Notes: generated by a model from the sequence alone, not told the origin. A stretch of 64,000 nucleotides of DNA from a bacterium (GCA_023133295.1 JAGLWT010000037.1:8638-72637); one strand, 5' to 3'. Counted from the first letter of the stretch, positions 24,355 to 47,809 are shown. Numbers and translations are program-made.

Positions 24355-24396
24355 CTCAATTTAGGTAAAAAGTAAAGATCCGATACCATATCCCTA
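24355..24396 (+). repeat. Module T copy, 3 nt beyond the stop of the KAP NTPase gene
   Basis: ctcaatttaggtaaaaagtaaagatccgataccatatccctat. Confidence 0.8.
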
Positions 24397-24398: not shown

Positions 24399-27300
24399 CT
24401 ATCCTTTTGCTTGATTTTCGTCACTTTTCGCTTTTTTCCTTCTATATTTGAATTTATAGGTCTTCTCAAGGAAGTTTTGAAGATCTTTCCTTCTTACATT
24501 GTCATTAATCAATTTAGGTAATTCTTTTAGTCTAATCCTCTGTCTTTGACCAAAATATTTCTTTTGAATACTGTCCAAAATCGCTTGTACGCTTTTAATA
24601 TATGTACCATCATTAATACTTATTAACCCTTCCAATGCTGATAATAACAATCCATTAATTTCAGGCTCGAATAGCGACTGATATTCTAGAAAGGCATCCG
24701 TTGTTTCAACATAAAGAATAATTTCTCTAGCTGGCTTAGTGAAAACTTCCTGTATTTTAATATTGATTTTTGTCTTGAATAGTGCCTCTCCCAATATATT
24801 TTGAATAAAGGATAATGCCTTTCCACCTGCCTTTCTTAAATAGATATTTGAGTGAGTCGACAAATTAAAAATATAATCTGCTACAACTGTTTCGTCACCG
24901 AAGAGTTTAGATTTTTTAGATAGAAGTCCTAGGAAATGATTGACTTTTTGAGGCTCTGTTTGACTGATGCTATTCACAATGCTGTATACCTTGCTCTTAT
25001 ACCAATTATACATTTGTTCATTGTCAATTAAATCATTAAGGATCAATTCAAGTTCCATAATCTTGTTGAAACTCAGATTGATACTAGCATTAATAATTGC
25101 TTGTTTTTGTTGGTCTGAAAACGGAAAGTGATTTGTTATTAATGTATCGATCTTGTGAGTAAATGTATCGTTGTTAATATTCGCAATAAACCTGTTCACT
25201 GTATATTTGACCATAGAACTATTCAATCGATCCCACCAACTATCTTCCTTTATTTTTTGCATATTTAGTATAAATCTAATGCTCTCTTCAAAAGTTTCAT
25301 TTGAACTAAGAGAAATTAAGTTTCCCGAATCATCATATCGCCTATCATTATCACTAGAATAGTAGCACGCTATGAGAAAGGGAATAATAATTATATTTCT
25401 ATCAATTTCCTTAAATTTATTATAAATTTTCTGGAGGTTCTCAGAGATATTAGAAAATTCCTTGTGAGAATTGAAAGAAAAGGCTCCTATCAATGTAAAA
25501 TAATTATTAATATTTTCATTTGGTTCAGTATTCTGTTTAGCTGACCAGTATTGAAATGCTAATGCCATTTGAGAAATAACGGCTTGCTCAATGCTATCAT
25601 CCCAATATTTTTTCATAACAATCACCCTCTTTCTAAAATTCTTCATAGGAGTGCTGTCTGTCTTTAAATATTCTTTTATACATCTTACAATCATATCCTG
25701 ATCAAATATCCTGTGTTTGCTCTCAATCCACTTTTCATTGGCATTAATTTCTGTTCCAACGAGAACATCCATTAACCATTCATTGTCATCAATAAGCACC
25801 AAAGTTTCATCAATTCTAGTAGCTACGCTTTTTCTAAAATGCATAGCATGATTAGAATAAAATAAAGATAGAAATTCTGCGATAGTCTCGGGAAAGATAT
25901 CGGGCGTAATAAGAGAAATGCCCTTATTAAGATACTCCTCTAGAAAGTTTTGGTTTTCTGAATTTTCGGCTAAACTAATAATATCTTTTATCATAAACTC
26001 GAATATTTTATCGCTCTCCAATATACTACTAACAATTAGTTTTGAATACATTTTCTTAAGACTATAATCAGATACTTGTTCTTTGTATACGTATATTGCT
26101 GATTGTAATAAATTCAGAAGCAAAGTTCCTACAGGTTTTTTATAAAACTGGTCTTGAAATACATTTAGGATACTTCGCAGAATCGGTATGTTTTTTATAT
26201 CCAGCAACTTAAGCACTTCAATTGAATATGATCTGATTGCTTCTAATAAATTAGTATAATCAGGAATCATCAGGGCATATTTGGGATATTTTTGGAAGAT
26301 GAGAGAATTCAAGTCTTTGACATTAATAGTTCTAGTTTCCCAAAGGAACTTGTTGAAACTCCTTTCAGTCTTCGTAAATTTTCCACCCAGAAATCCCTTT
26401 GATTTAATCGCTCTAGCTTGATAGTTTTCCATAATCGTATGCTCATCTATGATTTCTTGATAGAATGTTGGAAAAACGAATTCAATTACTTTAAGTTTAG
26501 CAATTTCATCAACGATTTCAAAAGGATCATGAGCAAAAACCTGTTGCTCTTCCCTTTCCGTCAACATAAATAATGTCGTTTTAATGTTATTCAAATAGTG
26601 TTTGAGTTTTCTGGGAGTGTCAAACCCTCCATAGTAGGCGATATTCATTACTTCTTCTGGTAATCCTATTTTTGTAGATATTTCCCTTCCGTAGTCAATT
26701 AAATCCGAATTTGTTATTACATTCATTCTAAGAAATACATCAAAGAATTTTGTCAATTCTTGAATATTATCATATTTACCGGAACGCTCTTTACTTAGGA
26801 TATCTGCTACTGCGTGACCATCCATAGTAATAATGAAAAAACATCTTTTATATGTTTCAAGATCAGAGTCATTTGAAGCAAGGAATGTCTTAATCGAATC
26901 CAGAACATTCAATATCATTTCATGAGAACACCTATCTATATCGTCAATGACAAAGATATATTTCTCACTGTCGCTTCCCGTATCTTCAATAATACGAATA
27001 AATTCCTCCTCAAAGTGTTCAGGTAAGATAATCTGAGGATCTACTTTCAGCTCAAATAACTTTGGGAATATTTTTCCTATGAGAGTGTTTAATACAAAAC
27101 TACCAGATAATAATGGAAGAAAGGATAACATTAACGCCCAGAAAGACTTATTTATAAAACCGTAAATCATAAAACCAGGTATTAAAGCAATGCAAACAGC
27201 AATAAAAACAACAGCGATAAATGCCACTAACGATTTAGTACTTGATTTAATGGTTTCAAAGCTATCTGTTAGGTGGAACTCCTTTTCTAATTCCCTGATG

Positions 27301-27683
27301 AATCTTAGATTGAGTTGTTTTGTATATTGTTCTCTCTTCTTTCCTTTTAAGATATCGTTCGCAGCTTGAATCAAGAATTGTCTACGAAAACAATCATCAG
27401 CATATTTCCATGCATTGAAATATGATAATGTAAATTGCCTACCAAAACTATCTTCTTGCTTAGCGTATTGTTTAAACTTGTTAATAACAGAAGATTTCCC
27501 ACTTCCCCACGGACCCAATAATCCAATCACGAACGGAGCATTATTGGAATTGTCTAAAATTATGGATTTTAAAGTACTTGCGATAGCTTCATGATCAAAT
27601 GGATCCGTTTCATTATCTGCCCCGTGAAAAGCCGGGACATCTTTAAGTAAGTTTAAATCAAAACCATTTTTCTTCTTTGACAT
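24399..27683 (-). CDS. KAP-family P-loop NTPase
   Basis: 1094-aa ORF with Walker A GLLGPWGSGKSSVINKF, two or more TM helices inserted after the P-loop (VAFIAVVFIAVCIALIPGFMIYGF...) and Walker B IFVIDDIDRC. Confidence 0.8.
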   Translation of the reverse strand: MSKKKNGFDLNLLKDVPAFHGADNETDPFDHEAIASTLKSIILDNSNNAPFVIGLLGPWGSGKSSVINKFKQYAKQEDSFGRQFTLSYFNAWKYADDCFRRQFLIQAANDILKGKKREQYTKQLNLRFIRELEKEFHLTDSFETIKSSTKSLVAFIAVVFIAVCIALIPGFMIYGFINKSFWALMLSFLPLLSGSFVLNTLIGKIFPKLFELKVDPQIILPEHFEEEFIRIIEDTGSDSEKYIFVIDDIDRCSHEMILNVLDSIKTFLASNDSDLETYKRCFFIITMDGHAVADILSKERSGKYDNIQELTKFFDVFLRMNVITNSDLIDYGREISTKIGLPEEVMNIAYYGGFDTPRKLKHYLNNIKTTLFMLTEREEQQVFAHDPFEIVDEIAKLKVIEFVFPTFYQEIIDEHTIMENYQARAIKSKGFLGGKFTKTERSFNKFLWETRTINVKDLNSLIFQKYPKYALMIPDYTNLLEAIRSYSIEVLKLLDIKNIPILRSILNVFQDQFYKKPVGTLLLNLLQSAIYVYKEQVSDYSLKKMYSKLIVSSILESDKIFEFMIKDIISLAENSENQNFLEEYLNKGISLITPDIFPETIAEFLSLFYSNHAMHFRKSVATRIDETLVLIDDNEWLMDVLVGTEINANEKWIESKHRIFDQDMIVRCIKEYLKTDSTPMKNFRKRVIVMKKYWDDSIEQAVISQMALAFQYWSAKQNTEPNENINNYFTLIGAFSFNSHKEFSNISENLQKIYNKFKEIDRNIIIIPFLIACYYSSDNDRRYDDSGNLISLSSNETFEESIRFILNMQKIKEDSWWDRLNSSMVKYTVNRFIANINNDTFTHKIDTLITNHFPFSDQQKQAIINASINLSFNKIMELELILNDLIDNEQMYNWYKSKVYSIVNSISQTEPQKVNHFLGLLSKKSKLFGDETVVADYIFNLSTHSNIYLRKAGGKALSFIQNILGEALFKTKINIKIQEVFTKPAREIILYVETTDAFLEYQSLFEPEINGLLLSALEGLISINDGTYIKSVQAILDSIQKKYFGQRQRIRLKELPKLINDNVRRKDLQNFLEKTYKFKYRRKKAKSDENQAKG

Positions 27684-27728: not shown

Positions 27729-27989
27729 ATTCTGCATAGTATATATCCATTCTTTTTCTAAATCACCCTTATTATCGTTCTACTGCTTTGCAAATATATT
27801 TTCAACTAATTGGACTTTGGACCTGAGAGACTGGGACACTGGGCTACTGGATCACTGGGCTACTTACTACCGTTGTACTGTTGAAATGCCCTCTCAGAAT
27901 TCTCAATTTAGGTAAAAAGGAAAGACACGGTACCCTATCGGCACCCTATTCTCCGATTCGCGCTCATTGTTAAAACAAAATGCACTGGA

Positions 27990-29000
27990 TCAGCTTTTAT
28001 CCTCATTTTCGTTCTCATTTGGATCAGCTCCACTATCATCTATATTATCTAAATCATTTACATCTTCCAATGGTTCTTTTTCAGTAATACTCTCTGATTC
28101 ATCCTGAGGTAGTTCAGATTCTTCTTTTTGTTCAGCTGTCTCTTCAATTACCTCTTCAGGGACTTTCTCCGCTTCAGCGCCTTCTGTTTGGTCAGCTTTC
28201 TCTTCAATTACCTCTTCAGGGACTTTCTCCGCTTCAGCGCCTTCTGTTTGGTCAGCTGTCTCTTCAAATACCACTTCAGGGGCTTTCTCCGCTTCAGCGC
28301 CTTCTGTTTGGTCAGCTGTCTCTTCAATTACCTCTTCAGGGACTTTCTCCGTTTCAGCTCCTTCTGTTTGGTCAGGAATCTTTCTAGTTTCCTTCTCTTT
28401 ACTTCTTGTCGTCAAGAATTGAAATATTAAACATATGATAAATGAAACTACAAATACATAATGAATGAAATGTATCGAATACATAAGGGCCGCTGCTCCA
28501 TCTTCCAGAATGGACATAAAGAGCCAATCCAAATTGAAAAGGAAATTCCCGATACTCCCGGAAGATATTGCAGAAATCGCTAATGTCAGACAAAATGATC
28601 CTACGATAGAGGTATTACATATTGTTGCAATCCTACCCCCTTTGGCACCCCAGATGGAAAGACCTATAATCCCGGCAATACTTAATAATATAAGCATGGC
28701 ATTGGCAGTTGCAAGTTCCATTTCAGGATTGATATGTATCATAATAAGAGTAATACTGGTTGCTAAGAATCCTCCGGCGACCATACCAATAACTATCCGG
28801 GTTATCTTATGAAGAAGAAAGCTTAGTCCGACTCCGATTACTATGAAGATCAAAACTATAATTGTTCCTTGCTCACTATTATGAAACAAAGCAGCTCCCA
28901 GGAACATGAATACAAATCCCCAGATCAAGGCATTAGTAAGCTTGAATACTTTATGTCCAAAAAGTCCAAGCATGACACCAAGGAATAGTAAATAAATCAT
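27990..29000 (-). CDS. Polytopic membrane protein with an acidic 20-aa tandem-repeat C-terminal tail
   Basis: 336-aa ORF with about 7 hydrophobic helices, then 4 repeats of ADQTEGAEAEKVPEEVIEET. Confidence 0.6.
   Translation of the reverse strand: MIYLLFLGVMLGLFGHKVFKLTNALIWGFVFMFLGAALFHNSEQGTIIVLIFIVIGVGLSFLLHKITRIVIGMVAGGFLATSITLIMIHINPEMELATANAMLILLSIAGIIGLSIWGAKGGRIATICNTSIVGSFCLTLAISAISSGSIGNFLFNLDWLFMSILEDGAAALMYSIHFIHYVFVVSFIICLIFQFLTTRSKEKETRKIPDQTEGAETEKVPEEVIEETADQTEGAEAEKAPEVVFEETADQTEGAEAEKVPEEVIEEKADQTEGAEAEKVPEEVIEETAEQKEESELPQDESESITEKEPLEDVNDLDNIDDSGADPNENENEDKS
28131..28374. repeat. Four tandem 60-bp repeats (coding)
   Basis: Sequence lines 28141, 28201, 28261 and 28321 are near-identical with an exact 60-nt period. 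Confidence 0.9.
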
Positions 29001-29253: not shown

Positions 29254-29706
29254 TTACGATTTAAATTTGACATTATTCCATATTATCCCTGCACATGCAA
29301 CCACACAAGCAACAATAAATAGTGTACACGACTGCTTTGAAAAATGTCTAAAAACACACCCAAGAGCTACTAAACTCTCTATTGAACCTATAAACATGAT
29401 CAAAACCATTAAGCAAGAAGGAGATGACTCTTTCTTAATCATCTCGGCATTATAGGCTAAAACAGTCGCTGCAAGAAAAGGAATCGCAATGGAGAGATGA
29501 ATAACAGCCATTTCAAGATACTCATCTAGCGAATTTACCATTACCAGTTGGATTAGTACATATGCGGAAATTGCCAGTAATCCTAAAGCAGATAAACGAT
29601 TTTGCAGGTTCATCATGAAATCAAATTTCTCTTCTTTCTTTCCTTCATCAACAGTCATATCTCCTCCGTTAGAAGTCTCAAATGACACACTAAAACACAT
29701 TATCAT
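29254..29706 (-). CDS. Membrane protein, function unknown
   Basis: 150-aa ORF with 3-4 hydrophobic helices. Confidence 0.45.
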   Translation of the reverse strand: MIMCFSVSFETSNGGDMTVDEGKKEEKFDFMMNLQNRLSALGLLAISAYVLIQLVMVNSLDEYLEMAVIHLSIAIPFLAATVLAYNAEMIKKESSPSCLMVLIMFIGSIESLVALGCVFRHFSKQSCTLFIVACVVACAGIIWNNVKFKS

Positions 29707-29949
29707 TTTTAATGTTCGCCTGATTGTTTTTAGGCGTAACTCCTTTGCCCTTTTCCGCTTGTGATTTTTTCATCTGAGCCTCCTTTAGCAACTAATGATT
29801 ACTTAGCATTTTGTATGCCATCTAAGGCTTTCCATATAATATTTCGCGATTGAATATTTGATTAATCTACACTTGACTGATAGTAACAAATAAGCAACAT
29901 TTGGGATATATTTTCAAATTGAATAATAAAATGAATTATTCAATGCTGC

Positions 29950-30756
29950 TTATTTGATGTACCTACTCATCTCAGAAAATTTCTCTAGTAGATTCTCTGC
30001 CAAAGTGGTTTTCTTAATAATATATTTTGCCCAACGACCTCTTGAATTGGATAATCTAGTACTTATTCTAAAACGTGGATTATTCTTATTGACAACATTC
30101 CCATTGAGAACCTTCTCGCTAGGTAGAAATATCAGATTCTCATCGATTTCAATTGTTTTAGGATCAAAATATGCACCTACAACAAAAAATGAGTGGTGGG
30201 GATTAAATGTTTTTTTCCTTACATCTATAATAAACGAGCCAGTTTCATGTAGCTTAAATCTGCTTTTGACCTGTAAAAATATCGGTTGATATATACCATT
30301 CTTTACGACGATTAAATCAATTCCTTCGGTATCTGTTACTGGTTTATAAACACTAAGAAGTCCTTGACCATATAATAAAATGAGATCCTTTATTCTATCT
30401 TCAACAATATCCCCTTTTGTAGAACTGGTTAATCCTGATGTGTCAATAATATTATCTGGTCGATGATCTATCAGTTCCTTTTCCTCAAATCCAGCCAGTT
30501 CAAGTCTATAAGTATTATTTTCCATTGATAGACCAACTTCATCTCCTGCTTCAACTTTGTTTCTTTTATACCATTGAGTTAAACCAAATATTCTCCTGTA
30601 CTGATAATTGTAAGTTAGTTTGTTAATCTTCCCATCCATTTTACATTCTATTTTACCTTTTGTATCTGGCATGAATTCTACACCTTTTGATGGAATATAT
30701 AGAAATCCCCCTTTGACCTCCACCTGTATTAATCTTCTTTTAAATATCTCTTTCAT
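29950..30756 (-). CDS. PD-(D/E)xK-like (DUF4365-like) nuclease with an N-terminal beta-barrel DNA-binding-like domain
   Basis: 268-aa ORF with a TDTEGIDLIVVKNGIYQPIFLQVKSR motif (D...QVK). The N-terminal segment RIFGLTQWYKRNKVEAGDEVGLS resembles B3/pseudobarrel domains, but only weakly. Confidence 0.5.
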   Translation of the reverse strand: MKEIFKRRLIQVEVKGGFLYIPSKGVEFMPDTKGKIECKMDGKINKLTYNYQYRRIFGLTQWYKRNKVEAGDEVGLSMENNTYRLELAGFEEKELIDHRPDNIIDTSGLTSSTKGDIVEDRIKDLILLYGQGLLSVYKPVTDTEGIDLIVVKNGIYQPIFLQVKSRFKLHETGSFIIDVRKKTFNPHHSFFVVGAYFDPKTIEIDENLIFLPSEKVLNGNVVNKNNPRFRISTRLSNSRGRWAKYIIKKTTLAENLLEKFSEMSRYIK

Positions 30757-30806
30757 TAATACACCTCCTTGAATTACAAATGTTAATCACATAATTACTA
30801 TGATAT

Positions 30807-30905
30807 ATATTACTTGATTTAAGAAATATTTTCAAATTAAACTAAGAACTCTGAGAATTTCAGCGTCATTTTGCAACTTTCGCAATTACCGGCCCCGAAT
30901 TGGCT
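30807..30905 (-). promoter_or_regulatory. G+P promoter module (TTGAAA-17-TAATAT)
   Basis: -35 is at 30835-30830 and -10 at 30812-30807, 51 nt upstream of the start at 30756. Confidence 0.55.
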
Positions 30906-30921
30906 TTCTTGCCAAATGTTA

Positions 30922-32463
30922 TTACCCATTCAATTGTCTGATGAGTATTTTTAAAACTTGAATTGCAATATTGGCTTCTTCGGAAGCAATAGTAAGTTTA
31001 TCCCGAATCTCTTTTCCAGGATGTATTAGATTTCTGTAATGCCTTAAAGAGTGAGAAAAGCCTTTAACTCCAAAATCTATTAATCCTAGTTCTTCCGATA
31101 CATCAATCAAATTTTCGAGAGTCCAAACTTCCAATTTTGTGCTCTTTTTCGTTTTTGCATCCCTCATTTTGGTAGAGTTCTTCATTAATAAATCCAGTAA
31201 TATTGCCTCAATTATAGAGCCTGTGAGAATTAATATTCCTTTGCAACAGTTCAATGAAATCATTTTATTTAATTCTGAAATATCTCTCTGAACTATTTCT
31301 TTAATACTTTCATCTTGAATGAACTCAACCGCGACACTAATTGTATTTACGGGAGAATTCTTATTCTGTCCCATTATTTCTTCCCATATAGTGCTTTCAG
31401 CTTCACCAGAGCGAGAGGATTTTTTCTTCTTCAGGAGATTGTCTAAATATGTCAACAGAAAATCACATACATTTTTCGTTTCATTTAGATCTTCAATCAT
31501 AGATGGAATCTCATATTTCCATTGAGAATAGTCAGTAGCATGATTTCCACTTCCTGTGAAATAGTAGCTAATATTTAACAGTAATCCAAGTTCTTTTATA
31601 TCTTCTTGTGATAATGAAAATAAATATCTCAACTCCTCGGACTCAATCTCAAATTTGCTTTCAATCACCCTGAATTTTCCCTTCATATAATAGAGATACA
31701 GAAGGAGGTTTTTAATATTCCTGCTCTTCAACCCTCCAATAGCAAAAATCCCAAGGAGCGTTAATTGATATTTATCATCTGGGGATTGATTGTTGTGAAT
31801 AATAAATCTTGGAGCTAATTCTTTCAGTGCATTATTTACCATTTCCCTTCCATGTTCTGTTCTAAATGGTAGCCCCGTTGGCCATTCCAACATAACTATG
31901 TATCTACTCCAAATGCTAGCTACTAGCTTCAAGTATTCCGAACTTATTTTGTTAATAGTTCTAACTATGTTATATGAAATTGAGGATTGATTTCGTATAA
32001 GTTCATCACACAATTTTTCATACTCATCCTCACTAACTATAAATATGTTTGAATCATACACAATGCTTTCGACTCGTTTTTTCATTTCAGAGAACACGTA
32101 TTTCAGTTCAGCCTTTTGAGAACCTGAGTTCATTCCTAAGTATACGGGAATGGAGATTTCATATTCCCGTATTAATTGGTCAGAAAAACCCTTAATTCGA
32201 GCTCGAACTTGATTCTTCTGATCTTCTGGAGTTTTTGATTTGCCAAGAGCTTCAATATCCAGTCTCAATTTATTACTAAGTAAATATTCTGTGCTGCCTA
32301 GGATTAAGTAAATAAGTGCGTCTTTGTGTTTTTTTGAAAACAATTGTTTTCTACCCGAATACGATGTATAGAGTTTGTTCACCTCATTTTCAAGAGCTTC
32401 TTTATGTTTCTGTGACACACCTTGAAATTGTTCATCACTTTCTTTAAATAGATTTGTATTCAC
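30922..32463 (-). CDS. Large hypothetical protein with a HEPN-like C-terminal motif
   Basis: 513-aa ORF with a GTG start. Near the C-terminus, GFSHSLRHYRNLIHPGKE has R-x(4-6)-H spacing. Confidence 0.45.
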   Translation of the reverse strand: MNTNLFKESDEQFQGVSQKHKEALENEVNKLYTSYSGRKQLFSKKHKDALIYLILGSTEYLLSNKLRLDIEALGKSKTPEDQKNQVRARIKGFSDQLIREYEISIPVYLGMNSGSQKAELKYVFSEMKKRVESIVYDSNIFIVSEDEYEKLCDELIRNQSSISYNIVRTINKISSEYLKLVASIWSRYIVMLEWPTGLPFRTEHGREMVNNALKELAPRFIIHNNQSPDDKYQLTLLGIFAIGGLKSRNIKNLLLYLYYMKGKFRVIESKFEIESEELRYLFSLSQEDIKELGLLLNISYYFTGSGNHATDYSQWKYEIPSMIEDLNETKNVCDFLLTYLDNLLKKKKSSRSGEAESTIWEEIMGQNKNSPVNTISVAVEFIQDESIKEIVQRDISELNKMISLNCCKGILILTGSIIEAILLDLLMKNSTKMRDAKTKKSTKLEVWTLENLIDVSEELGLIDFGVKGFSHSLRHYRNLIHPGKEIRDKLTIASEEANIAIQVLKILIRQLNG

Positions 32464-32481: not shown

Positions 32482-32575
32482 ATTTTACTTGATTTGCAAT
32501 AAATTTTCAAATTGAACTAAAAACCTCGTGAATTTCAGAGGCATTTTACAACAAGTTCCTGAGTTCTCCTCGGCA
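32482..32575 (-). promoter_or_regulatory. G+P promoter module (TTGAAA-17-TAAAAT)
   Basis: -35 is at 32510-32505 and -10 at 32487-32482, 19 nt upstream of the start at 32463. Confidence 0.55.
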
Positions 32576-32587
32576 AACTGCCGAGAA

Positions 32588-33217
32588 TTATTCTATTAAC
32601 TTAAGCGTATTTACTCTATCCTCACAACTAGTACACAACATGCAATGGTGACTTCCAATTGAATTACATGAAAATGTCTTTTTGTAAGGAATATCCTTCG
32701 TTGTAATATTAGCAATTACTTCTTCCCTATCTTTCTCCATAAATGGTGCTATTATTTTAAATTTTCTATCTCCCTTGTTCAATAATTTCTCAATAGCGCT
32801 AACATATTCTTTCTTTGTATCGTAATATGACTCTTTTCCAATAACCCCAATGGCTATTTCATATATATCTTTTCTATAACCATAGTTAGAGGCTAAAGTT
32901 AGCAATAAGAGGTTTCTATTTGGAAAGCATTCTTTCTGGTACCATTCACTTCTAATATAATCTTTCTCAGGAAACTCTCCTATTAGAGTACCACTACCTA
33001 TAGTTCCCATATTTTTAATATTTAATTCGTATAACCGGTCTTTGAATTTTTTATCTAGAATATTATGTATAGCTTTCTGTTCTCCCTCATATGATTTTTG
33101 TCCATAGTTTATGAAAAGGTGGTATATATCATAATTTTTCTTTAATAACCAATAATGCAGTATCGTAGAATCAATACCCCCAGAATATAGAAGGATAGCT
33201 TTTTTATTGATCACCAA
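32588..33217 (-). CDS. QueC-like PP-loop ATPase (7-cyano-7-deazaguanine-synthase family)
   Basis: 209-aa ORF with PP-loop ILLYSGGIDST, then INYGQ, FPNRNLLLLTLAS and a C-terminal C-x7-C-x2-C-x2-C zinc motif (FSCNSIGSHHCMLCTSCEDR). Confidence 0.75.
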   Translation of the reverse strand: MVINKKAILLYSGGIDSTILHYWLLKKNYDIYHLFINYGQKSYEGEQKAIHNILDKKFKDRLYELNIKNMGTIGSGTLIGEFPEKDYIRSEWYQKECFPNRNLLLLTLASNYGYRKDIYEIAIGVIGKESYYDTKKEYVSAIEKLLNKGDRKFKIIAPFMEKDREEVIANITTKDIPYKKTFSCNSIGSHHCMLCTSCEDRVNTLKLIE

Positions 33218-34481
33218 TTTCCTTTACTAACTCTTCTAAGGAATTTACTATTGAATCACAACCATGCTCTATCATATTGTTAAGTTTTACACTATTTGTC
33301 TTCAAACCAATAACTGATATACCTTTGGATTTTGCATACCCTATTTCAAAAAACGTACCAGGATCATAGACATCCACAACAGCAACAACACAATCTGCAC
33401 AGCATATTTTTTCTATGTCTTGTTTTACAATAGCTTCTTTTTCAGTTTTATCCATCCCTTCATTGATAGGGCCAATGTCTCTTACTGGAGAAATTACTTT
33501 ATAACCAGAAGCTTCTAGAACATTACATACTTTTGTTATCCAATCATACTCAGATTCAGAAAAAAACGGGCCAGCTAAATAAATAGTTTTCTCTATATGT
33601 AGATATTTTTTTCTTTCTTCCATCTCTTTTATTACTTTGTCTTCAGAAATAATATTTTCAATATTTTTTTGCTCGATAAAATTAGCGGCTACACAGGAAG
33701 CGATTTCCGCACTCTTAAAAACATTAATTCCCTTACAATAATTTGCAACTAAAGCTCCGTCATAAACATCCCCTGAGCCTAATGTGCAAAACACTTGAGA
33801 TTCGTATGAGCTTATCTTTTCCTCTTTCGTTGTATCGCATACTATACTACCTTTAATGCCTTGTTTAAGAATAATTATTTCAACATTTTTTTCTTTCAAA
33901 ATTCTAAATGCCCGTTCGGTTTCTACTTGTTCAGTAAGAAGATATAATTCCTCTTCATTAATAAGGAGTATTTTTATTTTATAATCCGTTATTATTTTTT
34001 TTGCCTGTGCAATTGAAAATTCATTCGGTTTTGGATCTAAAATTACTGGAATATTATTTTTATTTGCTTGTTTTATTGTTTTATTTGGAAAAGAATGGTC
34101 GATTGGGAAAATTACAAGTGCATCATATTTTTTGTTAAGCTTAGGTTCATAATCTATACCAATCCTACTAGTATTTGTTGGAATGCTATCTTTTTTTCCA
34201 TATTTACTATATCCGGTTACTAAATAATTTGGTAATAAGTATTTTTCGTCCATTTTTGCTTTGCTAAAATCTATTCCCATTCCACGCCATACCGACAAAC
34301 TATATTCATCTACCTTTGGGGCATATACAGTAAAAAAATCTACTTTAGCACCTTGTTTCGCTGCACTAATTGCAGAATATAACCCTGCTCCCCCCATTCT
34401 CCAAACAATTTTGTTATCATCAATTAACCAATCGGTTGCTATTTCTCCATATATTGCAAGTTCTATTTTCTCACTTTGCAT
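33204..34481 (-). CDS. Fusion protein: PfkB-family (ribokinase-like) kinase plus nucleoside 2-deoxyribosyltransferase-like domain
   Basis: 425-aa ORF. N-terminal motifs are GGAGLYSAISAAKQGAKV and GSGDVYDGALVA. C-terminal motifs are IYLAGPFFSESEYDW...CADCVVAVVDVYDPGTFFEIGYAKSKG. Confidence 0.7.
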   Translation of the reverse strand: MQSEKIELAIYGEIATDWLIDDNKIVWRMGGAGLYSAISAAKQGAKVDFFTVYAPKVDEYSLSVWRGMGIDFSKAKMDEKYLLPNYLVTGYSKYGKKDSIPTNTSRIGIDYEPKLNKKYDALVIFPIDHSFPNKTIKQANKNNIPVILDPKPNEFSIAQAKKIITDYKIKILLINEEELYLLTEQVETERAFRILKEKNVEIIILKQGIKGSIVCDTTKEEKISSYESQVFCTLGSGDVYDGALVANYCKGINVFKSAEIASCVAANFIEQKNIENIISEDKVIKEMEERKKYLHIEKTIYLAGPFFSESEYDWITKVCNVLEASGYKVISPVRDIGPINEGMDKTEKEAIVKQDIEKICCADCVVAVVDVYDPGTFFEIGYAKSKGISVIGLKTNSVKLNNMIEHGCDSIVNSLEELVKEIGDQ

Positions 34482-35184
34482 AACTTATAAATCCATTTCT
34501 ACCCAATTCCCAAATTAGAAAATCCAGCTTACCAAGACTAATTTTAATATCATCACATATTCTTTTTAATTCGTTTTCAATCTCGATGTATATTTTCTTT
34601 GTTATGGTTTTGGGTATATCAAATCCGTTATGCTTTAAGAATCGTAAAATATGAACATCTAAAACAGCTATCCTATCTGAAATATTAGTATTTCTTATGT
34701 ACCAACTTGCCGATTTCATCCCAAATCCCGGACATTCACATAACCACTCTCTTAAGTCATCAATATTTTTTGCAAACACAACCTCCTCAATCTCCCAATC
34801 ACATTCATCAAATAACCAATATCCTGCATTTGTAATTGTTCTTGGCTTAGTATTAAGGAAGCGATATTTTCGTAATTCATTGTTAATTGTTTTAGGTTCA
34901 AACTGTTTTTTTGAAAGTTCCCTTTCAATTAAGGCAAGAGTATCATTTAAAGAACTTGGAGATTTAAATAAATCCTTTTTTAAAATCCTTTTCTTGTTCA
35001 AAACTTTAAGTGCAGATTGATTCAGTTCAAAACTTATACCATAACCACCTAATATCACAAAAAAGAATTCTTTTATTAATACATCATTTGAAATCTTGCC
35101 AATAGAGTTGTTTACGCACATGCTTTCCGCATATTTACCATAACTATCCCATATTTTAAGAACTGCTTCTTTAGTCTTGTTCAA
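34471..35184 (-). CDS. OGG-like HhH-GPD DNA glycosylase (archaeal Ogg2-type)
   Basis: 237-aa ORF with ...LREWLCECPGFGMKSASWYIRNTNISDRIAVLDVHILRFL. The Lys and Asp sit at the positions of the glycosylase/lyase catalytic pair. Confidence 0.65.
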   Translation of the reverse strand: MNKTKEAVLKIWDSYGKYAESMCVNNSIGKISNDVLIKEFFFVILGGYGISFELNQSALKVLNKKRILKKDLFKSPSSLNDTLALIERELSKKQFEPKTINNELRKYRFLNTKPRTITNAGYWLFDECDWEIEEVVFAKNIDDLREWLCECPGFGMKSASWYIRNTNISDRIAVLDVHILRFLKHNGFDIPKTITKKIYIEIENELKRICDDIKISLGKLDFLIWELGRNGFISYAK

Positions 35185-35192
35185 TATTAGAT

Positions 35193-35606
35193 TTAATGAA
35201 TACCTTTTACTTCAACTTGTATTGTAGGATTATTTGCTGATCCTTGTATAGAGGTGATTTTGCCTTCATATTGCCAGCCTTTTTTAATACATTCTAAAAT
35301 AACACCTTTGCTTGGAGGGACTAATCCAATCTTAAAACTATCTTCCTTTTTTAAAACACTTAATTGTGAAACTCCGCCTTCTTCACTTAATACTATTAGA
35401 ACTTCATCATCAATGTGACATTTTTCCCATACTTCTTGCTCATTATTTTCAATTACAACATCAAATATCTGTGTTCTTGCACATTTATCATCGTTGTCTC
35501 CAGACTGGCCGGCGCCTTGAGAACCGCCTGCTCCTGCGCTTCCATTATTATCACTTTTGTTTCTATAACCACCTGAACCATAACCGGATCCTGATCCTCC
35601 GCCCAT
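35193..35606 (-). CDS. Small protein with a Gly/Ser-rich N-terminal tail (MGGGSGSGYGSGGY...) and an unknown ~90-aa C-terminal domain
   Basis: 137-aa ORF with a strong SD (AAGGAGG) 4 nt upstream of the ATG and an extended -10 TGTTATAAT about 40 nt upstream. First gene of the operon. Confidence 0.55.
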   Translation of the reverse strand: MGGGSGSGYGSGGYRNKSDNNGSAGAGGSQGAGQSGDNDDKCARTQIFDVVIENNEQEVWEKCHIDDEVLIVLSEEGGVSQLSVLKKEDSFKIGLVPPSKGVILECIKKGWQYEGKITSIQGSANNPTIQVEVKGIH

Positions 35607-35938
35607 AAGTCCTCCTTATCAATTATTCAACTATGTTTATTATAACACAAAAATAAGATTATTTCTATTTTTTTTTACCTACATATCATTTCAAAACAAA
35701 AATTAATCTTAACAGTTCGCTACGCTCACAGCTACGCCGTTCACTCCGCTATTATATTCCCTTTCGAACCCCACAAAATACCTACCCGCAACCATTCATC
35801 CACAAAGCGGCTTCCCCCTACTCTCCTACCCAAAAGAATCCATCACGCATTAACGTGATACGTGAATCCTTGTCCCTGGGTCAATGGGTTACAGGGACAC
35901 TTACTATCGTTGTCCTGTGGAAATGCCTTCTCAGGGTT

Positions 35939-35975
35939 CTCAGTTTAGGCAATAAGTAAAACCACGGTACCCTAT
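35939..35975 (+). repeat. Module T copy (divergent), 36 nt beyond the stop of the 36011-38113 gene
   Basis: ctcagtttaggcaataagtaaaaccacggtaccctat. Confidence 0.7.
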
Positions 35976-36010: not shown

Positions 36011-38113
36011 CTAGTCTTTATTTTTTTTAAGAATCCTTTTCAAGAAACCAAGCTGTTCTTTGCAATTCCTTCCCAAAACGAAATTTACTATTATGATCCA
36101 CGAACTAGTTACGACAACAAAGAATGGCCAAAAATTACATACTTTTTGTATAATATTCTCTCCTCCGGCAAATAAATATGAAAGAAAAACCAGTACAATG
36201 TATAACAAAACTAATATAGTTATCCACATTATAAACTTTTCCTTACAATCCCTCTTCTTTTCTTTTTCCCTTTCACTTTTATCAATCTCCCTATCTTCTT
36301 CAATGCCGAAGAGCTTATTTTTTAATTTTTCTATTTGCTCATTCAAGGCTTTATTAGTGCTTGTCGTTTCTTTCAAGGTTTCATCCTTTTGGTCTATTTG
36401 ATCAATATAATTCTTGTTCTCTTCCTCTACTGATTGAACTTTTTCTTCAAGTATATATTTTTTCTCAGACAATTCTAGAACTTGTTCCTCCAACTCCTCT
36501 TCTCGTTTAGCTTCTAATTTTGCAAAAACATTTCTTAGCTTAGAAATATTGTCTGGGTTATGAATATCATATCCATGATTGAACTTAATATCATCAAGAA
36601 AATCTTCTATTTGTTCTTCTGACAATTTATCCGCATTTACTCCTATTTTTTCAAATATTTTGAAGTCCTCCAGCTCAAATATTTTTTCATTTGGCAAAAA
36701 TCTTTTCCGGATCATATCAGAAAATATCTCTTCAACTTCTCCCTTCTTACTCTTCTTCATATACGGAGAAAACCATTGTAGCAAAGTGTCCAGAGATAAG
36801 GCAATAGACTTAACATCCTTAGCACTATATAGAATTCCTGGAAGCGAGTGATCAAGTGTTAATACCCATGTTTTTTCTTTGCCTGTTTCTCTTACCTTAT
36901 CAACCCATTTCAGCATAAGAGAATCATGCAATGCACTTGTACTACTTTTCTCCCTAATACTTAAAACACTATACTTCTTTTGAAGCACCTCAGCTAATCT
37001 TGTAATATCTTTAGCTATTTTATTATCATTAAACCAGCTATTGTTTATTTTATTATCATAATCTATTAAGCTAGCAACATCCAAATATCTCTCGCAAAAC
37101 TTTTTAATATTTCCACTATTCTTTCTTTTCCAATCTAAATACTCCAAGTAAATCTCATCATCAATTTTATGGGACATGTCAGCAATTGTTTTTTGCATGT
37201 CAGAGCTCATGTCTGAGTAGATATTTTGAAACTGTTGCATTTTGCCATCTAAGAGCCGTTGTAATTCTTTAATAGATATTTCCAAAACAGTAAATTTCAC
37301 ATTGAGGGATTTAACTGAGTCAGTGAAAAATTCAAAACTTAAATGATTACGAGAATGCATAAATATTTGATTATAAATAATATTTGTATCTAAAATGAAC
37401 TCTGCGTCTTTAAAAATATCAACATTTAACGCATGTCCATTTGGATCTAAACCCAAAACCTTAGTAATATAGTAGTTTTGCGTAACTGTCCACTTTATAT
37501 AATCATATTCCGGATCTGTCACCGAAATAAATGTTGACAAACCTTTCTTAAGAATTTTCTCATTCAAATGGTTATATTTAGCGATAACATTATTAACACA
37601 AGTCTTATAATGATGGCTAGTAACAAAGTCTTTTTTCCCATCTTTTCCAGTAATGGATGCTACGTATTCTCCAGCAATTCTTGAGAAAAAATGTCCAAGA
37701 AAATCAAAAAAAGCGTCCTTATACTTTCCTGGGTGGGATGCTAAATCAAACAGTTTATTTATGATTTTCTCATATTTATAATTATGTTCTTTGTTGGTTC
37801 TGTCAATTTCATCATACCCCTTTCTTAATAGTTTAATGTTTTTACGATCAACACTTTCGATGTATCCACAATTGATTAATGATTGAAACAATCTTTTCAC
37901 TTCCTTTATTGTTAGATGTACCTGGAAATATTCTCTGACTTTTTTTTGTATTTCGTTGATTGTGAATTCTCTTTCTAAAGAAGTTTTTTCGAAATAGATT
38001 GCCTGCATTATGAACCTTTCTAAAGCATAGTCTTTCAAAGCAATAGTGGTAGGCGATAATTTAACTAAATGTGCCAACAATATTTCTCTTTTCAAATTCG
38101 AATCCGAATTCAC
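36011..38113 (-). CDS. wHTH / PIN-like / coiled-coil / C-terminal 2-TM protein, function unknown
   Basis: 700-aa ORF. AEFILDTNIIYNQIF is a PIN-type N-terminal acidic motif. It also has a long E/K coiled coil and two terminal hydrophobic helices (FIMWITILVLLYIVLVFLSYLF; FWPFFVVVTSSWIIIVNFVLG). Confidence 0.5.
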   Translation of the reverse strand: MNSDSNLKREILLAHLVKLSPTTIALKDYALERFIMQAIYFEKTSLEREFTINEIQKKVREYFQVHLTIKEVKRLFQSLINCGYIESVDRKNIKLLRKGYDEIDRTNKEHNYKYEKIINKLFDLASHPGKYKDAFFDFLGHFFSRIAGEYVASITGKDGKKDFVTSHHYKTCVNNVIAKYNHLNEKILKKGLSTFISVTDPEYDYIKWTVTQNYYITKVLGLDPNGHALNVDIFKDAEFILDTNIIYNQIFMHSRNHLSFEFFTDSVKSLNVKFTVLEISIKELQRLLDGKMQQFQNIYSDMSSDMQKTIADMSHKIDDEIYLEYLDWKRKNSGNIKKFCERYLDVASLIDYDNKINNSWFNDNKIAKDITRLAEVLQKKYSVLSIREKSSTSALHDSLMLKWVDKVRETGKEKTWVLTLDHSLPGILYSAKDVKSIALSLDTLLQWFSPYMKKSKKGEVEEIFSDMIRKRFLPNEKIFELEDFKIFEKIGVNADKLSEEQIEDFLDDIKFNHGYDIHNPDNISKLRNVFAKLEAKREEELEEQVLELSEKKYILEEKVQSVEEENKNYIDQIDQKDETLKETTSTNKALNEQIEKLKNKLFGIEEDREIDKSEREKEKKRDCKEKFIMWITILVLLYIVLVFLSYLFAGGENIIQKVCNFWPFFVVVTSSWIIIVNFVLGRNCKEQLGFLKRILKKNKD

Positions 38114-38184
38114 TTGCTCCTCCTAATACATATTTTGTCTATTGTGAAAGTCAACATAGTTTCACTGCTATCAATATTTTCATA

Positions 38185-39645
38185 TTAAGTTTCTAGCTTT
38201 TTCGTGATTTCTCTGATGCTTTCAAGAGCCGATTCGAGGGAAACGGCGATTTCGGCAGCTAAGATATCTGGATCGGGAAGATTATCAAGATCCATTAAAC
38301 TTTTATCTTTGAGCCAGAAAATGTCAAGGGATGTTTTATCTCGTTCCATGATCTCATCATAAGTGAATTTTTTAAAGCGCTCTGTTTCCTTTCTATCGTG
38401 CCTATTTACGGGATTGTAACAGTCAATAAAATCCTGCAAGTCAGCAAGTCGCATCGGGCTCTTTTTAAGAGTAAAATGGATATTAGTCCTAAAATCATAA
38501 ATCCATACTTCTTTAGTCCATGGCTTTTTACTCGCGGGATGATTATCAAAGAAGATCACATTTGCTTTAACTCCCTGTTTGTAGAATATTCCTGTCGGAA
38601 GTCGAAGTATTGTATGAAGGTCAGTAGTTTCCAGAAGTTTCTTCCTTACTATCTCTGCAGCTTTGCCCTCAAATAAAACATTATCGGGAACAACAACAGC
38701 AGCTTTGCCATCTGTTTTCAAAATTGCCCTTATATGCTGAACAAAATTCAGCTGCTTATTGGATGTAGTAGTCCAGAAATCTTGCCGATTATACACGAGA
38801 TCTTCCTTTTCCTGTTTACCTTCTTCGTTGGTAAACGTCATACTGCTTTTCTTTCCAAATGGCGGGTTGGTCAGCACATAGTCGAAGCGGTCTCCAGGGT
38901 CAGCAATAAGTGAATCGTTCCTTGTAACAGGAGGATCAGCATCCATACTACCTATATTATGCAGAAATAGATTCATCAAACATAGGCGATAGGTGTTTGC
39001 CACAAGCTCACAACCTCTAAAAGTACTGAGTTTCAGAAATTTTTTCTGTTCCTGATCAAGACTATAGTTATCAGTATTAGATAGGTATTCATATGCAGCT
39101 AAAAAGAACCCACCTGTCCCGCAAGCTGGGTCTGATATAGTTTTATTGGGCTCGGGCTTTACACACTCTACCATGGCTTTTATTAATGCTCTGGGAGTGA
39201 AGTACTGCCCGGCTCCACTTTTTACATCTTCAGCATTCTTCTCAAGCAATCCTTCATAAATAGTTCCTTTTACATCAGTACCCATCATAGCCCAGTTTTC
39301 AGAATCTATCATCTTGACTATTCGAAACAATTTAGCAGGGTCTTGAATCTGATTCTGAGCCTTTACAAATATCTGACCTATCAATCCCTTCTCCTTTCCA
39401 AGAGTTTGAAGCAATTTCACATAATGTGTTTCCAGTTCTGCGCCTTTTCTATCGGTAAGGGACTCCCAGTTATAGTCTTCTGGTATATTGAGTTTCCTGT
39501 TATATGGAGGCTTTGAATATTCATTCGCCATTTTCAAAAAGATGAGATATGTCAATTGTTCCAGATAATCTCCGTAACCCACTCCATCATCACGAAGGGT
39601 TGTGCTGAAGCTCCACACTTTCGATATTATCGTTTCTGTATTCAT
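38185..39645 (-). CDS. hsdM: Type I restriction-modification system, methyltransferase subunit
   Basis: 486-aa ORF with DPACGTGGFF (SAM binding) and the NPPFG catalytic motif. It overlaps hsdS by 4 nt. Confidence 0.9.
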   Translation of the reverse strand: MNTETIISKVWSFSTTLRDDGVGYGDYLEQLTYLIFLKMANEYSKPPYNRKLNIPEDYNWESLTDRKGAELETHYVKLLQTLGKEKGLIGQIFVKAQNQIQDPAKLFRIVKMIDSENWAMMGTDVKGTIYEGLLEKNAEDVKSGAGQYFTPRALIKAMVECVKPEPNKTISDPACGTGGFFLAAYEYLSNTDNYSLDQEQKKFLKLSTFRGCELVANTYRLCLMNLFLHNIGSMDADPPVTRNDSLIADPGDRFDYVLTNPPFGKKSSMTFTNEEGKQEKEDLVYNRQDFWTTTSNKQLNFVQHIRAILKTDGKAAVVVPDNVLFEGKAAEIVRKKLLETTDLHTILRLPTGIFYKQGVKANVIFFDNHPASKKPWTKEVWIYDFRTNIHFTLKKSPMRLADLQDFIDCYNPVNRHDRKETERFKKFTYDEIMERDKTSLDIFWLKDKSLMDLDNLPDPDILAAEIAVSLESALESIREITKKLET

Positions 39646-40970
39646 TTTTTCCTCTTTTTACTACTTACAGCAAGTTTTTCTTTCTTAATCCTCTCAAGAA
39701 GTTTTTCTGCTGATTCATCATTCGGATCTTGTGGAACGAGCTTTCCTTCAAATGCCTGTTTTAAAATACTCTGCCGAAGATATTCAATCTTTTTCAAACT
39801 CTGCCTGACTGTTTCTTCCAGTTTATCGCACACCGAAAGACGAGATTCTATTTCTCCAATAATTAGTATCTGTTTATTAATACTTTTCGGAATATAAATA
39901 TACAGATTTTTAATAATTCTTAAGTTGAGGTTGGGCTGCACCCCACCTGATGCTTTCTGACGCATTTGTTCATATTCTTTCTTCAAATAGTACTTTAAAT
40001 ACTCTTTAACTACTTTCGATGCCTTTTGAAAAGTAATTACAGCACATGCCTGATTCGTAGCTGCATCTATTCCTAATTCAGAAGTTTTTCCTCTGGTTTT
40101 TCCTTCGCCATATAAGGCAATAAGCAAACTACCTTTAACAAATATTTTACAATTTGTTTCTTTTATGGCAGCGGTTGTAATTTTTTCTTTAGATGTCATT
40201 ACTAATTCATCATTAACACAGGAACTAGTAACCCAAGGGATAGTCCCGTTCTCATAGTATTTCCTAACTCCCCTCTTAGGAGTAGAGCCCGTCCCTACAT
40301 CTGCAAAATCCTTGATTTGGCAAGTAAACATTTCCCTTTCACTAATTGTTATTAATTTCCCCTCAAAAGCAGCCTTAAGAACTGATGAGCGATAGATTAC
40401 TAACTGTTCTTGAGTTTTCTTTAAAACTCCAACGGCCTTATCTAAAGATGAAAACAATTCTTCAATTTTTTCTACAATTCGTGTTTGTTCATTAAATGGG
40501 CATAATGGAAAAGGGAAATTTCTCGTTTCAGCTAAAGGTAGTGTTTTCCTTCCTGTACCATTTGCTTTATTGTAAGAAAGTAAAAATATGTCTAAAGTAT
40601 TCATATAGCTTTCCAGATACTTCGAATTGATATATTTTCTAATAGGTTTCAGCAGTCCTAATCCTACAAAAATTGATACTTCTTCTTCAAAATCTATTCT
40701 TTTTGCAAACCCCAATGTGCCAATTCGTGGAAATAATATATCATCAATTTCTGGATTACATCTTCTGATAAGTTTTTTATGCTCTTCAATTGATATATAC
40801 TTCTCATATACTTTCCAATTTATTCGGGCAAAGGGTCTAATATTTTTTATTGAAATAAACCGAATTCCATTCTCTTTATAATTGGGTGTTTTATGTGTAC
40901 CATCTGTTATTTTAGAGCACACTTCATTTAATTTAACCTCTACCCATTCTTTTGGAATTGATAAACTCAT
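39642..40970 (-). CDS. hsdS: Type I restriction-modification system, specificity subunit
   Basis: 442-aa ORF with two target-recognition halves separated by conserved coiled-coil spacers (...EEQTRIVEKIEELFSSLD... / ...LIIGEIESRLSVCDKLEE...). Confidence 0.85.
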   Translation of the reverse strand: MSLSIPKEWVEVKLNEVCSKITDGTHKTPNYKENGIRFISIKNIRPFARINWKVYEKYISIEEHKKLIRRCNPEIDDILFPRIGTLGFAKRIDFEEEVSIFVGLGLLKPIRKYINSKYLESYMNTLDIFLLSYNKANGTGRKTLPLAETRNFPFPLCPFNEQTRIVEKIEELFSSLDKAVGVLKKTQEQLVIYRSSVLKAAFEGKLITISEREMFTCQIKDFADVGTGSTPKRGVRKYYENGTIPWVTSSCVNDELVMTSKEKITTAAIKETNCKIFVKGSLLIALYGEGKTRGKTSELGIDAATNQACAVITFQKASKVVKEYLKYYLKKEYEQMRQKASGGVQPNLNLRIIKNLYIYIPKSINKQILIIGEIESRLSVCDKLEETVRQSLKKIEYLRQSILKQAFEGKLVPQDPNDESAEKLLERIKKEKLAVSSKKRKK

Positions 40971-40971
40971 T

Positions 40972-47558: not shown

Positions 47559-47768
47559 AGCTTACTCCTGAATAGTCGTGGGAAGAGGTTACGCTTCGCA
47601 GTGGGCCCAGTGACCCAGTGGACCCAGTGGAACAGGGGGGAAGGGACAAGTGCAAGTGAATAGTGTATAGTGATGAGTGAAGAGATAAAGAAGAGGGTAG
47701 TTGAGAAAAGATACCGTGTAAACTCATCTCTAATTTCGCTTCTTTAATCATCTTTTCCAGCATGCGTT

Positions 47769-47797: not shown

Positions 47798-47809
47798 AGC
47801 AAACACCTG

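Follow-up and report, generated by a model that had tools for sequence, protein, structure and literature searches.

A 64,000-nucleotide stretch of bacterial DNA from a metagenome scaffold (GCA_023133295.1 JAGLWT010000037.1:8638-72637; hereafter the window) carries four tightly packed genes on its minus strand (35606..32588), in the order A-B-C-D. We propose, with a probability of about 55%, that this operon forms a self-contained module for protein deazaguanylation and probably acts as a conflict system, against phages or otherwise, in which a small protein with a glycine-rich tip (A) would be tagged by a QueC-family enzyme (D) and then processed by a kinase-transferase fusion (C) and a DNA glycosylase-like protein (B).

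Protein deazaguanylation was discovered in 2025 (10.1101/2025.04.06.647259). In the type IV cyclic oligonucleotide-based antiphage signaling system (CBASS), Cap9 ligates 7-carboxy-7-deazaguanine (CDG) to Gly2 of the CD-NTase, a nucleotidyltransferase of the cGAS/DncV-like type (Wassarman et al., 2025, Science 389:1347; 10.1101/2025.04.06.647259). The CD-NTase extension always begins M(G/S)G(G/S)GG, CdnD (GGSGGSFGSGFDPR) is modified on G2, and deletion of the extension or mutation of G2 abolishes defense. Cap9 residues Y115 and D117 contact NDG, Cap10 keeps NDG bound with the N9 of the base ready for transfer, and Cap11, which is found in about one third of CBASS IV operons, has a proposed reversing role (10.1101/2025.04.06.647259).

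Layout and conservation of the operon

The operon, its domains and its putative expression signals are as follows (NDT, nucleoside 2-deoxyribosyltransferase).

35606..35193, minus strand: gene A, 137 aa, Gly-rich, predicted substrate protein
35484..35606, minus strand: predicted acceptor motif and flexible tether of gene A (aa 1-41), Gly/Ser-rich, disordered
aa 44-137 of gene A, minus strand: HIRAN-like beta-rich domain, from fold matches
35184..34471, minus strand: gene B, 237 aa, Ogg2-type HhH-GPD DNA glycosylase/lyase-like, counterpart of Cap11
34481..33204, minus strand: gene C, 425 aa, PfkB kinase::NDT fusion
33612-34481, minus strand: kinase half of C (about aa 1-290), PfkB PF00294, E = 2e-18
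33207-33590, minus strand: NDT half of C (about aa 298-425), Nuc_deoxyrib_tr PF05014, E = 5e-19
33217..32588, minus strand: gene D, 209 aa, compact Cap9-like QueC-family PP-loop ATPase, predicted ligase
35667..35639, minus strand: promoter-like site, TAGAAA, 17-nt spacer and TATAAT with TG just upstream (extended -10), TGTTATAAT
35617..35611, minus strand: Shine-Dalgarno sequence AAGGAGG, 4 nt upstream of the gene A ATG, read from the sequence
32569..32585, no strand assigned: inverted repeat CTCGGCAAACTGCCGAG, 2 nt past the gene D stop, possible 3' stem-loop

Genes A and B are separated by an 8-nt gap, while B and C overlap by 11 nt and C and D by 14 nt, the last overlap being 11 nt if gene D starts one codon later, at the GTG chosen in the public gene call. 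The promoter-like site, which has 10 of 12 consensus matches plus the TG and the top score in the region, is called from its consensus match alone, and such sites are no commoner in the region than in shuffled controls. Because the Shine-Dalgarno sequence sits 4 nt before the ATG of gene A, the N-terminus MGGGSGSG is well defined. On the coding strand no T-run follows the inverted repeat, and a terminator-like call (T/A-rich tail) is made solely on the plus strand. All domain calls are significant in profile searches against Pfam, NCBIfam and PADLOC, in which gene A matches no family. An earlier note, made from the sequence alone, had described this packing, the unit's own extended -10 and strong Shine-Dalgarno sequence, and the assignment of the genes to the QueC, OGG, PfkB and NDT families. 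All of this is borne out, the promoter by consensus match and the families by profile searches (E = 7e-36, 1e-22, 2e-18 and 5e-19, respectively). The motifs that it had listed are also present and align with catalytic positions: SGGIDS and four Cys in D, the Lys of GFGMKSAS and the Asp of VLDVH in B (against solved Ogg2 structures), and GSGD and YLAGPFF...GTFFEIGYA in C, whose kinase half further has NxxE.

Relatives of the fusion were collected by scanning one genome per species, which gave 187 confirmed relatives, and 80 loci were fetched. Seventy-three of these encode a PfkB::NDT fusion; the other 7, plain lactobacillus NDTs, were left out of the counts. The 3' end of the fusion runs into a QueC-like gene in 65/73 loci, and a small open reading frame (ORF) of family A lies directly upstream of the fusion in 66/73, mostly sharing a few bases with it; of the 7 loci that lack a family A gene, 4 are contig ends. 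An OGG-like gene is found within 4 kb of the fusion in 51/73 loci. The fusion loci span about ten bacterial phyla, and haloarchaea are represented among related plasmid loci. In the eight closest loci (41-47% identity), the exact A-B-C-D order of the window is found wherever the contig reaches. This order holds in Bacillota-type loci generally, whereas it is B-A-C-D in Verrucomicrobiota and Planctomycetota and A-C-D with a divergent OGG in Pseudomonadota. The order is thus shuffled while the gene set is kept, which is the signature of a functional module. The four-gene operon is a real, widely conserved unit and not a chance neighborhood, and the earlier note's idea of a coherent, nucleobase-centered module in a defense island stands.

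For the ORFs that flank the operon in the window (513 aa, 700 aa and 268 aa), none of the 73 related loci contains a relative, and we therefore take the four genes as the unit here. We rejected these ORFs as members of the system on this ground and because recurring intergenic modules lie between them and the operon.

The candidate ligase and its predicted substrate

Protein D is most likely a compact Cap9-like enzyme of the QueC family, predicted from its sequence to deazaguanylate Gly2 of protein A. It matches QueC (PF06508, E = 7e-36; PADLOC 'QueC' model, E = 1.4e-32) and falls below the QueC equivalog cutoffs (TIGR00364, 106.3 vs 150.3 bits; NF008317, 56.5 vs 378). Matches to QatC models are weak (NF041925, 26.5 bits against a cutoff of 280; PADLOC QatC, 4.5e-4 over 60 residues only). 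Its best match in the PDB is Cap9 (9NTO_B, E = 8.8e-13), ahead of QueC (2PG3, 2e-11), and its Y131 and D133 align with Cap9 Y115 and D117. The protein keeps the SGGIDS PP-loop (SxGxDS; S12, D16, S17), the RN motif (R101, N102) and the Cys4 zinc site, and of 66 relatives, 64-66 conserve S12, D16, S17, R101, N102 and D133. With canonical QueC and Dpd enzymes, it would share the QueC fold, the ATP-dependent activation of CDG and 7-deazaguanine chemistry; unlike them, it scores below the equivalog cutoff and is accompanied by a partner protein with an acceptor motif.

The 65 QueC partners include two clades. Ten are of the window's type and keep the Cap9-like cysteine signature C(x)7CxxCxSCxDR, which reads CNSIGSHHCMLCTSCEDR in protein D of the window, together with YxDT. 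Another 53 carry CH(x)5CxxCxGCxK and H-x-D-G, which is exactly the signature of QueC 'Cluster 4'. This cluster has been described with a PF00294-PF05014 fusion in about 89% of its neighborhoods and read as purine salvage (Libby et al., 2026, Biochem J 483:1357, PMC13329287). It is the sister clade of the window's type and shares with it a short QueC-like protein beside the fusion, 53/73 loci carrying its signature. Protein D of the window has the Cap9-like C(x)7CxxCxSCxDR and YxD motifs and not CH(x)5CxxCxGCxK, and its clade, unlike Cluster 4, lacks the nitroreductase gene and often has a dGTPase. In the literature searched, this QueC plus PfkB/NDT pairing (Libby et al., 2026) is the sole prior mention of the system, and protein A and the OGG are not mentioned there. 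The earlier statement that no described system has this gene set must therefore be narrowed: the pairing was known as Cluster 4, while A and the OGG are not described with it.

The accessory genes of relatives bear on the chemistry of the ligase. QueD and QueE, which make CDG in the queuosine pathway, are encoded next to the system in five actinobacterial loci, and this adjacency speaks for CDG being the substrate. At the position of QueC, five Bacteroidota loci instead encode a protein resembling adenylosuccinate synthetase (PF00709, 8e-45), and the OGG is missing in exactly these five loci. Enzymes of the adenylosuccinate-synthetase family activate a purine carbon and join an amine to it. 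This swap of a PurA-like enzyme for QueC is hard to explain unless the conserved task is joining an amine to a purine; by analogy, the PurA-like enzyme of Bacteroidota may perform a second, chemically different protein-to-purine ligation. In these loci (L015, L016, L029, L054 and L065), the PurA-like gene lies just after the fusion, and the small protein often begins MKGGG and not M[S/G]GG.

Protein A, which starts MGGGSGSG, belongs to no Pfam, NCBIfam or PADLOC family, and a word-indexed homolog search with gene A alone returned only protein A itself. We recovered its family through gene context first and then with a profile, reaching at least 224 clusters at 90% identity and at least 1563 at 50% identity (E <= 1e-3). 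Nearly all members are 105-130 aa long, the source names are 'hypothetical' where present, and the listed members have no Pfam domain. The shared architecture consists of an M-[S/G]-G-[S/G]-G-G tip, a low-complexity Gly/Ser/Pro tether, an invariant Cys and, over about 90 aa, a beta-rich domain that contains another invariant Cys. The tether is usually about 15-50 aa long and reaches about 190 aa in Halorubrum. At the annotated N-terminus, M[GSTAC]G[GSTA] is found in 111/120 database members, and the stricter start M[GS]G[GSTA][GSD] occurs in 0/777 non-family genes in the same loci. In the homolog on Halorubrum lacusprofundi plasmid pHLAC01 (L083 3388-4476), whose gene is flanked by TIR and DUF262 genes, MGGGSGG precedes a disordered acidic stretch of about 190 aa, and the domain follows in two tandem copies. 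Since this homolog keeps the tip before such a long linker, it is the tip that is conserved and not the linker.

The invariant residues of protein A are C42 (codon 35483-35481) and C106 (35291-35289), for which a disulfide, a metal site and catalysis are candidate roles. The gene call for a metagenomic protein of 383 aa (P0195) joins 257 residues, which include a nucleotidyltransferase-like G-G...DxD motif, in frame to a family A protein with an internal start of its own, MSGGSGS; this may be a fusion or a missed stop.

In the AlphaFold2 model of protein A, residues 1-36 have no secondary structure (predicted local distance difference test score, pLDDT, about 50) and the domain is modeled at a pLDDT of about 70-90. 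Its best fold matches are HIRAN domains in two independent libraries: the top matches in the PDB are 3K2Y (TM 0.63 by target, probability 1.0, E = 0.018) and the HLTF HIRAN domain, and those in BFVD include 'HIRAN domain' proteins at marginal E-values of 2.5e-3 to 6e-3. Overall, the HIRAN fold matches have probabilities of 0.97-1.0 and marginal E-values of 0.001-0.07. HIRAN is absent from the 25 most-matched Pfam families listed for 120 family A members (E <= 1), and the family A profile has no match among PDB sequences at E <= 10. We treat a HIRAN-like domain, possibly binding DNA 3' ends, as a lead from structural modeling.

Tagging by D is the best-supported reading of the MGGGSGSG tail, judged from these motifs. 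The earlier note had left a sugar or nucleotide, DNA and a protein as possible destinations of the activated base. These do not stand equal: because the tip of A matches the deazaguanylation motif and is conserved across the family, a protein-first destination is favored, with the MGGGSGSG tail, which the note had itself suggested, as the acceptor.

Several likenesses tie the operon to type IV CBASS. Both have a compact QueC-family ligase, Cap9 being the best PDB match of D with the NDG-contacting Tyr and Asp kept, and in both the partner protein presents an M(G/S)G(G/S)GG N-terminus on a flexible tail, although the carrier here is not a CD-NTase. Both also have an OGG-family gene in the operon and a defense-island setting. 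Unlike type IV CBASS, the operon and its adjacent genes, as scanned with Pfam and PADLOC, contain no CD-NTase, cyclic-nucleotide effector or Cap10 of the tRNA-guanine transglycosylase (TGT) type. The substrate here is predicted to be a stand-alone HIRAN-like protein of 105-140 aa, the PfkB::NDT fusion stands in the place of the base-handling enzyme, and the OGG is present in most loci (51/73) and not in a minority.

Qat systems offer a second comparison. The core QatB-QatC complex of QatABCD (PMC13279940, PMC13376578, PMC13639016) also pairs a QueC-family enzyme with a small partner that belongs to no known family, has a long disordered tail at its N-terminus and carries an essential N-terminal Gly motif: the MGTS tail of QatB enters the QatC active site (PMC13279940, PMC13376578). 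Both systems would have a minimal two-protein core without an obvious effector. In contrast to D, QatC is about 400 aa long with N- and C-terminal extensions, and Thr replaces the nucleobase-binding Tyr and Asp. QatB is all-helical and starts MGTS, and QatA (a KAP ATPase) and QatD (TatD) have no counterpart here.

These data also bear on the purine-salvage reading. In this reading, D would make or amidate free 7-deazaguanine, the NDT would add deoxyribose, the kinase would convert the product to a nucleotide, the OGG would clear DNA, and A would be unrelated or regulatory; the cassette would then serve 7-deazapurine or purine salvage, or nucleoside biosynthesis. An NDT and a nucleoside-type kinase would naturally pair in salvage, some loci have QueD and QueE next to the system, and homologs of QueC and PurA both occur in toyocamycin-type deazapurine pathways. 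It is also the published interpretation of Cluster 4 (Libby et al., 2026, PMC13329287). We nevertheless consider it quite unlikely. It does not account for protein A, with its NDG acceptor motif, tether and domain, although A is the most constant partner (66/73) and is translationally coupled to the fusion. Nor does it account for the Cap9-like features of D, which lies under the QueC equivalog cutoff and closest to Cap9, or for the genomic contexts: the distribution is patchy, plasmid-borne and often in defense islands, neither queD nor queE is found in the window, and none of the adjacent genes scanned encodes a TGT or transporter. In RefSeq, the P. aeruginosa plasmid pPUV-6 (L082) and pHLAC01 (L083) copies name the QueC-like gene '7-cyano-7-deazaguanine synthase' and the fusion 'PfkB family carbohydrate kinase', and call the small protein and the OGG-like gene 'hypothetical'. 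The RefSeq and NCBI names given to the QueC-like gene and the fusion of this system are probably misleading.

A peptide-modification reading, of the kind known for ribosomally synthesized and post-translationally modified peptides, would have the PP-loop ATPase activate the Gly/Ser-rich tail of A and a SagB-type dehydrogenase oxidize it in most relatives, giving heterocycles or a changed backbone. Gly/Ser-rich peptides are classic azole-forming substrates, as in microcin B17, and a SagB-type nitroreductase gene follows QueC in 33/53 Cluster 4 loci. The SagB-like gene is, however, found neither in the window nor in any of the 10 loci of its clade, the motif stands at the extreme N-terminus without a leader peptide, the system has no YcaO or cyclodehydratase, and the NDT, kinase and OGG genes are left unexplained. 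We find this reading most improbable.

Proposed fate of the tag

Both halves of protein C keep their catalytic residues. In the kinase half, D17, GG30-31 (lid), N175/E178 and GSGD235-238 with the catalytic Asp are invariant; in the NDT half, Y301 and D355 are invariant, and D373 and the Glu nucleophile E379 are at least 90% conserved. The NDT motif YLAGPFF...GTFFEIGYA aligns with those of the true transferases 6EVS, 7M5H and 1S2D, and the AlphaFold2 model of C has a pLDDT of 93. The kinase half resembles ribokinase, nucleoside kinase and 2-keto-3-deoxygluconate (KDG) kinase, and the fold search does not separate nucleoside-kinase from sugar-kinase specificity. Protein B matches Ogg-HhH (PF22175, E = 1e-22) and scores 95.9 bits with NF002305, below the NCBIfam equivalog cutoff of 183, and is therefore a divergent member of the Ogg2 group. 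Its nearest solved relatives are the Ogg2 enzymes 9O00, 3FHF and 3KNT, with which it shares the HhH-GPD fold and the aligned catalytic Lys (GFGMKSAS) and Asp (VLDVH) of Ogg2-type glycosylase/lyases.

We suggest the following sequence of events. In a first step, which we infer on strong comparative evidence, methionine aminopeptidase would expose Gly2 of A, and D would adenylate the carboxylate of CDG drawn from the host queuosine pathway, leaving the base on Gly2 of A. In a second step, proposed by analogy and from gene logic, the tethered base with its free N9 would enter the base pocket of the NDT domain, C occupying the place of the TGT-like Cap10. The NDT domain would transfer a (deoxy)ribosyl group from a nucleoside donor to N9 through its conserved Glu nucleophile and a glycosyl-enzyme intermediate, and the fused PfkB kinase would phosphorylate the sugar, giving a protein-tethered nucleotide. 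More speculatively, the HIRAN-like domain of A may bring the adduct to DNA 3' ends or another nucleic-acid target, and B, like Cap11, may recognize the 7-substituted guanine analog and remove or reverse the tag.

A more specific version is tentative, and we would put the odds against it. Here, once D has placed NDG on Gly2, the NDT would deoxyribosylate the free N9 and the kinase would add the 5'-phosphate, making a protein-tethered 7-deaza-deoxyguanosine monophosphate (7-deaza-dGMP). Attached to DNA 3' ends or built into them, it would block replication as a protein-DNA adduct, which the OGG-like enzyme would excise from self DNA. Deoxynucleosides would supply the sugar; in relatives, a linked dGTPase would release them. 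A dGTP triphosphohydrolase or HD dNTPase follows QueC as a fifth gene in 6/10 loci of the window's clade. Such enzymes yield deoxynucleosides, the sugar donors of NDT enzymes, and dGTPase is also a known anti-phage activity. This fifth gene, like the SagB-type nitroreductase of the sister clade, had been missed by the earlier note.

The main rival for the downstream step keeps the tagging of A by D and makes the NDT::PfkB fusion a toxic effector, whose NDT N-glycosidase activity would deplete purine nucleotides. The tethered NDG would plug the NDT pocket and hold the enzyme off, and sensing of phage DNA ends by the HIRAN-like domain of A would release the plug. Retron Ec86 (type II-A) provides a precedent for an NDT-fold domain that acts on purine nucleotides in an anti-phage system, its NDT-like effector depleting adenine derivatives (10.1101/2023.08.16.553469), and type IV CBASS has an inactive complex in which the pocket of Cap10 is occupied by the NDG tail (10.1101/2025.04.06.647259). 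An effector role would also supply what the system otherwise lacks, and the dGTPase neighbors fit a theme of nucleotide depletion. Unlike the retron, however, this system has no reverse transcriptase or multicopy single-stranded DNA; its NDT is fused to a kinase and aligns with the transferases 6EVS, 7M5H and 1S2D, not with the retron effector. A pure hydrolase would also leave the invariant, apparently active kinase unexplained. We think the effector reading unlikely.

Other observations weigh against a deazaguanylation module. The position of the Cap9 Tyr is occupied by His in 50/66 sequences, those of the larger sister clade, and the base may therefore differ in that clade. QatC, whose partner also has a Gly tail, failed to use CDG in vitro (PMC13376578). 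Some members of family A begin MKGG or MTGT, so that Gly2 is not universal, and the HIRAN-like call consists of fold matches with marginal E-values and no support at the sequence level. None of the models in PADLOC 2.0 covers A, B or C, the system includes no recognizable killing effector, and a defense context is frequent among relatives but not universal.

This context is nevertheless recurrent. Among 66 non-redundant loci, the immediate neighbors include dGTPases, DNA methylases, OLD/Gabija/PARIS-like ATPases and restriction enzymes, and further neighbors include a SLFN-type helicase, DUF4917, a transposase and a phage portal gene. A Dam-like methylase lies beside the divergent OGG in 13 proteobacterial loci. 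The system is found on 16 plasmids; the copy on a P. aeruginosa IncP megaplasmid adjoins a TIR protein, and those on haloarchaeal plasmids have TIR and DUF262 neighbors. No relative of the fusion was found in the phage collection.

The defense island and the meaning of the system

In the window, the operon lies within a defense island that is denser in defense genes than the earlier note stated and includes the following genes.

38185-43725: Type I restriction-modification system, beside the operon
24399-27683, minus strand: KAP NTPase, 1094 aa, whose first ~70-95 residues match QatA models (2e-15)
8101-9968, minus strand: AbiLi+AbiLii pair
18467-20332, plus strand: AbiLi+AbiLii pair
15203-16189: PDC-S14 candidate
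1174-3117: 647-aa protein with a PycC-like cyclase domain

A SocA/Panacea antitoxin-like gene is also present. Of the neighbors first named, the Type I restriction-modification system, the KAP NTPase and AbiL, in two AbiLi/AbiLii pairs, were found, while no AbiE was seen among the ORFs scanned. No queD or queE relatives were found in the 64 kb, nor any tgt/dpdA-like gene among the neighbors scanned, while no search aimed at queF was made. The six adjacent genes (29254-32463 and 36011-43725) have no TGT, CD-NTase, TatD or transporter match. The single QatA-like match comes from the N-terminal part of the KAP NTPase, which lies 5 kb away in a separate cassette with no QatB, QatC or QatD beside it. 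The accessory genes of relatives are likewise absent from the 64-kb window, in which queD, queE, PurA-like and dGTPase representatives were searched for and no SagB-like gene was found. We rejected a Qat system built on the nearby KAP NTPase, which forms a separate cassette without QatB, QatC or QatD signatures, and a retron or CBASS, there being no reverse transcriptase or CD-NTase among the neighbors scanned.

The repeat modules said to bound the operon are present on both sides (35876-35975 and 32485-32576). They belong to a 100-nt family (3443-3542, 6961-7060, 7986-8085, 24292-24391, 27839-27938 and 35876-35975) and to a 92-nt promoter-like family (7554, 10128, 13895, 16212, 30810 and 32485, the last copy being 32485-32576); a 37-nt core has 15 copies between 5047 and 30904. 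One family follows the stops of minus-strand genes, and the other, promoter-like, precedes such genes and has the core ATTTTGCAAC...GCAAC...CCGTCCCCGAG. Such modules recur between many cassettes of the island, and those bounding the operon look like the 3' and 5' ends of neighboring cassettes and not parts of the operon itself. The island may thus be a string of cassettes in which the recurring modules mark cassette exchange or shared regulation.

The 513-aa ORF directly downstream of the operon (30922-32463, minus strand) has no Pfam or NCBIfam match and no relatives near the system elsewhere; its C-terminus, LRHYRNLIHPG, resembles the HEPN Rx4-6H motif. Elsewhere in the window, a long array with 9/15-nt periodicity (56754-57440) lies inside ORF 56168-57682, a 60-nt tandem repeat in 5 copies (28053-28412) lies inside ORF 27990-29000, and intergenic runs of (AGTGAAN)n-type heptamers are found at 47655-48201, 49933-49991, 53351-53395 and 59123-59579.

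Taken on its sequence features, the operon most likely belongs with the deazaguanylation anti-phage systems as a third and largely undescribed relative, and our analysis suggests that the 'purine salvage' annotations of this QueC clade are wrong. The same logic of a ligase and a Gly tail would here be paired with well-understood chemistry, namely N-glycosyl transfer, sugar 5'-phosphorylation and base excision. The system is small and tractable, with four genes, and the fate of the tag could be read by mass spectrometry. If the 7-deaza-dGMP proposal is true, it would reveal what the free N9 of NDG is for, a question left by the work on type IV CBASS.

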